This document shows positions 9,711 to 16,258 of a DNA stretch of 29,399 nt, piece by piece. The notes under the pieces are model-generated. The model saw only the letters and a list, made by a program, of their open reading frames with translations. It searched no databases and was not told the origin of the DNA. Position numbers and translations under genes: made by a program. The stretch comes from a virus. Taxonomy: Duplodnaviria > Caudoviricetes. The stretch spans positions 1 to 29,399 of IMG/VR virus record IMGVR_UViG_3300020043_002440; one strand, given 5' to 3'. Within the stretch, counting starts at the first letter, position 1. The number at the start of each line of letters is the position of its first letter.

Positions 9711-9809
9711 GATTTAAATGTAGTTTGGAGTTTCTGCCAGTTGCAAAGGCCGACAGGTGCGCCTACTTCGTGCCAGCAAGTCGGCACACACTACATCATC
9801 ATAGAGTTG
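9711..9809 (-). promoter_or_regulatory. Structured 5' leader of the capsid mRNA
   Basis: P1 AUGUAGU (9796-9790)/ACUACAU (9724-9718), P2 GCCGAC (9785-9780)/GUCGGC (9754-9749), small P3 UUUGC/GCAGA. Confidence 0.55.
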
Positions 9810-11260: not shown

Positions 11261-11268
11261 CAAAGGTA
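11261..11268 (-). promoter_or_regulatory. -7 promoter box (leaderless geometry)
   Basis: TACCTTTG-TTAC-ATG. Confidence 0.65.
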
Positions 11269-16169: not shown

Positions 16170-16250
16170 AGTATAGAGATTTGAATTGTTGGTGGTTGCC
16201 TGTTGAATAGGACGGCTTCCGAACTCCTACGTCTCTATGATGATCTACTG
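16170..16250 (-). promoter_or_regulatory. Structured 5' leader of the tail-tube mRNA
   Basis: P1 AUAGAGA (16238-16232)/UCUCUAU (16179-16173, positions -10 to -4 of AUG); P2 UAGGA/UCCUA enclosing CGG-AAG-CCG. Confidence 0.55.
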
Positions 16251-16258
16251 CAAATTTA
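16251..16258 (-). promoter_or_regulatory. -7 promoter box
   Basis: TAAATTTG just downstream of the previous stop codon. Confidence 0.65.

Follow-up and report, generated by a model that had tools for sequence, protein, structure and literature searches.

Predicted separate transcripts for capsid and tail tube

Operon layout and the strength of initiation are the usual explanation for how tailed phages match head and tail production. Here, capsid and tail tube are predicted to be encoded on separately promoted transcripts, with the two genes 5.3-10.4 kb apart in relatives, and a direct mRNA-mRNA helix may match them. We refer to the whole stretch of DNA analysed, 29,399 nucleotides of a virus record that is 84% complete, as the window. 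The minus strand carries terminase, portal and a long tape-measure-like gene, and all coordinates below are on that strand.

Neither the capsid nor the tube protein was named by PHROGs, Pfam or PDB sequence searches. Predicted structures agree with the labels given to both in the initial annotation. The 347 amino acid protein (9710-8667) is, judging by its model, an HK97 major capsid protein (pLDDT 77.5; Foldseek E 1.6e-8 to the HK97 capsid fold). For the 179 amino acid protein (16169-15630; pLDDT 80.7), the model supports assignment as tail tube, on weaker evidence than that for the capsid. Briefly, the best Foldseek match, to a tail-tube/Hcp-like fold, has an E value of 3.3e-3. Comparison using VIA gave a middling Z of 8.3 (rmsd 5.6, 130 aligned), with nearly all of the top 50 rows being tube or Hcp. 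The protein may instead be a tube-fold terminator or baseplate protein.

Promoter boxes in the window match TAnnTTTG, given as the consensus for Bacteroidota boxes in the relevant section of PMC6847099. The same section reports 4-5 nt between box and start, and predicted +1 positions for both transcripts were set from this spacing. The tube -7 box is at 16258-16251, with a predicted +1 near 16246-16245, and such a box is also present 5' of the tube gene in relatives. The capsid -7 box is at 9817-9810 and predicts a +1 near 9805. Among 22 representatives, 13 have a G at position 5 past the capsid box; note that this set, also used below, was picked by hand and its members are related to each other. 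An intrinsic terminator directly 5' of the capsid promoter (9852-9825) splits the two transcripts, and a crude rule detects a terminator-like hairpin at this position in 58 of 85 leader pairs (described below). A further terminator, 3' of the capsid gene (8588-8562), predicts a monocistronic capsid mRNA. The capsid gene has a dedicated promoter and is flanked by terminators, from which we predict that its leader and that of the tube belong to different RNAs. Contigs of relatives from three RNA runs (9-11% of words) showed no transcript ends.

The promoter type, together with one Atlas cluster, is our basis for naming Bacteroidota as the host phylum. Assignment of a host via two short contigs in unrelated MAGs was also considered; the match was not trusted. 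Elsewhere in the window, boxes lie only 4-6 nt before the ATG at 11268, 27001, 26165 and 2443. The corresponding mRNAs are apparently leaderless, or nearly so, unlike the two long leaders.

The complementarity is retained through sequence turnover

The initial annotation described an exact 12-nt complement between the two leaders, close to their promoter boxes, and the coordinates check out. The capsid seed (9806-9795), 3 nt past its box, and the tube seed (16244-16233), 6 nt past its own, match as reverse complements at all 12 positions. We use the term seed because each 12-mer coincides with one strand of the conserved intermolecular pairing described next. The annotation had also cautioned that such matches are common by chance. 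This is correct; we counted 45 maximal inverted 12-mers in the window, against its estimate of about 25. Hence, the match in a single genome is at chance level and proves nothing.

We turned to relatives. Scans recovered 225 loci, including the window and some repeated contigs, of which 144 have both genes. Among them are 85 distinct leader pairs (an initial 84, plus L081); L069 and L110, in which the tube leader is truncated, were left out. Identity extends down to 64% for the tube and 60% for the capsid, and a quick tree was used for clade overview only. The tube has 257 known homologues, and the DNA obtained was from those of about 55% identity or more. A motif scan returned at least 120 stretches; among those listed were 80 long ones, none with a convincing model match. 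Cultured relatives were sought in INPHARED by capsid, tube and distant tube, and none was found.

The initial annotation had asked if complementarity is lost in close relatives, and if both 12-mers undergo compensatory change. The exact 12-mers are retained in only 5 of the 85 leader pairs. The pairing itself is not lost: a seed helix of at least 8 bp is present in 82/85 pairs, or 79/85 when counting from the predicted +1. There are 30 distinct helix sequences, with full compensatory turnover on both sides, G-U wobbles and bulges. Examples include UCUUUUUGC with GCAAAAAGA (L121) and GUCAAUAUGC with GCAUAUUGAC (L126). In L081, the helix takes a polarity-swapped form. Among 13 distant seed types, picked by hand, cognate pairs averaged -15.5 kcal/mol and swapped pairs -6.3 kcal/mol. 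The true partner ranked first in 11/13 and 12/13, and none of 200,000 permutations reached the cognate mean. Other promoter-proximal 5' ends of the same loci mostly pair worse, the exceptions being L081 and L138, where competitors come close in energy.

An origin by chance, or by common descent with no function, would be compatible with the many inverted 12-mers in the window. Conversely, it does not account for complementarity that outlives complete sequence turnover, the permutation result, or the mostly poorer pairing of other 5' ends. We regard this explanation as barely credible. Instead, the patterns of sequence change support selection on seed complementarity. We conclude that a co-evolving helix, between the 5' ends of the capsid and tube mRNAs, is very probable.

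One locus, L161, is a clear exception, with mismatched seeds. This contig is a mosaic; the tube half is about 93% like L159/L163 and the capsid half is 97% like L199. It is either a natural recombinant or a chimeric, misassembled contig. A separate observation concerns the region just 5' of the capsid promoter. Here, a second -7 box lies about 60 nt before the terminator (9893-9825), possibly specifying a short RNA, 7 nt of which could pair with the capsid seed in the window. A similar box, with a TTCATAG start, is found 5' of the capsid gene in 11/85 pairs. Since these include clades with different seeds, this feature does not track the seed.

Pairing between RNA molecules rather than a DNA element

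Both 12-mers had been placed at mRNA 5' ends, and this fits the wider data. On each RNA, the helix takes up roughly the first ten nucleotides from the predicted +1, with a pairing register sum of 10-13 in 77/85 pairs. The initial annotation had also offered an inverted DNA operator, for a late regulator, as an alternative. Such an operator, or a pair of inversion sites, would suit the position of both copies just 3' of promoters. Several observations make it unlikely. First, no seed sequence that a DNA-binding protein might recognise is common across clades. Second, in the helix core (capsid +3 to +7), 26-30 of 29-30 combinations are Watson-Crick, with two G-U and no A-C. The core G-U pairs are in the L033 clade and L167. 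Note that the count of G-U versus A-C is uninformative at helix ends. At one position, close relatives have A-U (L004), G-U (L005, L008) or G-C (L015, L019). Third, the helix is bulged in several clades. Fourth, an inverted arrangement is absent; the two genes are co-oriented in 144/144 loci, repeated contigs included. This single orientation also led us to reject an invertible DNA segment. Finally, in a strand test, the sense helix was longer in 10 of 39 cases and the antisense helix in 3, a difference that is only suggestive by itself. A DNA-level explanation is thus very improbable. These observations support the seed helix being an RNA duplex between two separate (predicted) mRNAs.

A duplex so close to the predicted +1 of both RNAs could act by protecting mRNA. 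In this scenario, the duplex would bury both 5' ends, pseudoknots (see below) would be nuclease roadblocks, and unpaired excess would decay, so that coupling occurs at the level of mRNA amount. The location of the helix, at or adjoining the predicted +1 of each RNA, is consistent with such protection. However, protection leaves unexplained the complementarity that links seeds and module strands with the start region of the same leader (also below). We consider mutual protection of 5' ends unlikely.

Homologous pseudoknots in both leaders

The initial annotation did not include any structure 3' of the seeds, and the modules described here are added by the present analysis. Covariation strongly supports the presence of a homologous H-type pseudoknot in both leaders, with one copy in the tube leader and usually two in the capsid leader. 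In the window, the tube module (16230-16195) would form helix P1 between 16229-16225 and 16212-16208. Helix P2 would join 16216-16214 to 16200-16198, extendable by pairing of 16224-16222 with 16197-16195. The capsid leader has a proximal module (9794-9770), with a short P1 and a 5-bp P2, and a distal module (9766-9734) that is homologous to the tube module. Capsid leaders of the L057/L065 clade have a single module, with a U-run replacing the proximal one. Modules begin GUAGG, or a close variant, 3' of the seed.

P1 pairing is seen in 96% of cells across 50 tube leaders. The register of P2 varies, and 63% is paired in a plain alignment. Covariation for the tube pseudoknot, in the same 50 leaders, exceeded that of 500/500 shuffles and of all slid registers. 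For P2, cognate strands paired better than swapped strands in the tube module (-8.7 versus -4.3; n=22) and in the capsid modules (-7.3 versus -3.2, n=22; -7.1 versus -3.7, n=19), where P2 is the best helix chosen for each sequence, a choice that favours cognates. Two crossing helices with compensatory changes, as expected of an H-type pseudoknot, are therefore found. Furthermore, a model built from tube leaders only identified the capsid leader, at the distal module, as the second match in the window (E 0.0019). A weak third match (4086-4038; E 0.017), before a 164 amino acid gene, is without the module and is probably a similarity between start regions. Searches of the window with the Rfam 15 covariance models gave no matches up to an E value of 5. 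Across 10 loci, Rfam gave two weak matches, neither at a leader.

The first five letters of the module change together in some genomes. In L127, one variant is present across all three modules, and the same is true of L131. Likewise, L057 and L065 each have one variant in both modules. Such concerted change, within a genome, hints at a shared ligand. The duplex could then be a two-RNA platform for a pseudoknot-binding protein, supplied by the host or acting as a phage-encoded repressor or activator, with co-repression or co-localisation, not activation, as the outcome. The three homologous modules, and their concerted changes, are in line with this. On the other hand, L167 has mixed variants among its modules, the ligand is a candidate only, and gene conversion, or constraints from the start-hiding helices described next, could also align module copies. 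We think a protein platform of this kind unlikely.

Leaders are predicted to hide their own start regions

In silico folding of single leaders gives, for most of them, a structure in which the start region is paired by the seed (3' half) and the module (5' strand). This start-hiding pairing is predicted for most representatives and is weak in several clades. In the window, the tube initiation region and first codons (16182-16158) are predicted to be paired by the 3' part of the seed and/or the module 5' strand. In the predicted capsid fold, the initiation region (9724-9705) is engaged twice: 9724-9717 by 9797-9790, and the start codon region by the seed. The capsid start-hiding helix is altered on both sides in L167, L131, L127 and L065. 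The 5' half of the seed often resembles the start region of the partner, as expected if the two compete for the same strand.

We compared the predicted cost of opening each start region. With native seeds, the start region was costlier to open than with shuffled seeds in 14/22 tube and 18/22 capsid leaders. Blocking the seed made opening cheaper in 16/22 tube and 17/22 capsid leaders, with relief absent or reversed in the remaining 6 and 5, respectively. On average, at 20 C, the block reduced opening cost from 10.3 to 8.7 kcal/mol for the tube, and from 7.9 to 5.6 kcal/mol for the capsid; the mean relief (1.6 and 2.3 kcal/mol) is modest, and the folding calculation ignores pseudoknots. The seed itself needs, on average, about 4-6 kcal/mol to open. 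The seed helix lies within the predicted dimer in 16/22 cases and is missing in 6/22. Permutation values for pairing in cis are inflated by kinship, and one cross-leader control also gave 279/50,000.

According to the initial annotation, the capsid RNA could be a one-way trigger that invades a stem in the tube leader, via a 6-nt toehold, and so activates tube translation. The 7-bp stem (16239-16233 plus 16232, paired with -10 to -4) is indeed part of the minimum-energy fold of the tube leader in the window, and the easing of tube opening upon seed block would also suit a one-way switch. However, stem and toehold are specific to a clade, occurring in 10/85 pairs, and a conserved unpaired toehold beside the stem was not found. 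In addition, the capsid leader has the same anatomy and a larger predicted effect. In the window, the seed block lowers predicted opening cost by 4.3 kcal/mol for the capsid and 1.3 kcal/mol for the tube, the smaller tube effect being explained by the ability of this leader to re-pair in another register. Any switch looks reciprocal, and activation in one direction only is decidedly improbable.

A proposed reciprocal switch between the two mRNAs

We lean, by a little, towards a reciprocal RNA switch between the two late mRNAs that couples head and tail synthesis. In Bacteroidetes, structure around the start tunes initiation (PMC6847099), and we count this in favour of such a switch. The steps would be as follows. 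Each leader alone would be OFF, its initiation region and start codon covered by the module 5' strand and the 3' half of its seed. The 5' end of the partner, which resembles the start region, would then capture the seed. Pseudoknots could now form, both initiation regions would open, and the leaders would be ON. Efficient synthesis of either protein would require the mRNA of the other, as in an AND gate. Help may come from a common module-binding factor, as the concerted changes of the modules suggest.

A more demanding version of the reciprocal switch has each mRNA silent alone, with the seeds forming a lock and key specific to each lineage, to the disadvantage of head/tail recombinants. The second element stems from the difference in seed between lineages, which would act against recombinants with mismatched head and tail modules. 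We rate this version slightly below an even chance. Note that 5'-end protection and the protein platform are, in part, compatible with a reciprocal switch.

Comparison with known systems

We found no description of the leader pairing element, and no pairing between phage structural mRNAs, in searches of open-licence papers. In the synthetic toehold switch design, with one trigger and one switch, a trans RNA displaces a stem that hides the start. The phage leaders differ in that each RNA would be both trigger and switch, the helix measures about 10 bp, and a long free toehold is absent. The likeness is to engineered toehold switches and riboregulators (PMC9071393). Elements of about 80-110 nt come with about 30 natural, largely orthogonal, seed variants. 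Being small, and with many orthogonal seeds, they might serve as compact parts for RNA logic in Bacteroidota.

Bacterial mRNA-mRNA regulators are few; the passage of PMC8722363 concerned named one earlier case in 2020. That account covers pairing of the hly 3' UTR with the prsA2 5' UTR in Listeria, and of irvA with gbpC in Streptococcus mutans. As in these systems, two full mRNAs, for linked proteins, would pair in trans with one 5' end bound. Complementarity between separate (predicted) mRNAs, by which the hly-prsA2 kind is recognised, is kept in relatives. Regulation of the hly-prsA2 kind is described there as one-way and based on protection from RNase J. Unlike this arrangement, so far as that account extends, the phage leaders pair 5' end with 5' end, apparently reciprocally, and have start-hiding folds and pseudoknots.

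The TA-TABS interaction of RCNMV is also similar, in that a short helix between two viral RNAs gates capsid expression, with the site partly hidden in cis (PMC8622197). As portrayed in that source, the interaction is one-way, is between genome segments of a plant RNA virus, and controls subgenomic transcription. By contrast, the phage leaders use mRNA 5' ends and the proposed effect is on translation. The T4 gene 32 leader has a pseudoknot, bound by gp32, in the mRNA of a highly expressed phage gene (PMC10690425). The likeness is one of structure; gene 32, in the description given there, is subject to protein autoregulation in cis, with no partner mRNA. Four contig identifiers and one motif were absent from six supplementary files of PMC10690425. 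Lacking an Rfam match, a cultured relative and a description in the open-licence papers searched, the phage leader pair was not placed within any of the hly-prsA2, RCNMV, toehold switch or gene 32 systems.

Neighbouring genes

The gene order around the tube is unusual. The tape-measure-like gene and a putative tip gene precede the tube gene, which is itself 5' of the portal gene (22500-15630), and this order is kept in 18/18 relatives. Between tube and portal (15630-14160) are a glycosyltransferase-like gene, identified by a weak Pfam match, and a methyltransferase gene, kept in 18/18 and 17/18 relatives, respectively. The tube stop codon overlaps the start of the glycosyltransferase-like gene, which suggests translational coupling. 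Virion glycosylation is also possible. A small unannotated gene (11256-10990), with its own promoter, precedes a scaffold-like gene and is present in 17/18 relatives. Its product is one candidate for the module-binding factor.
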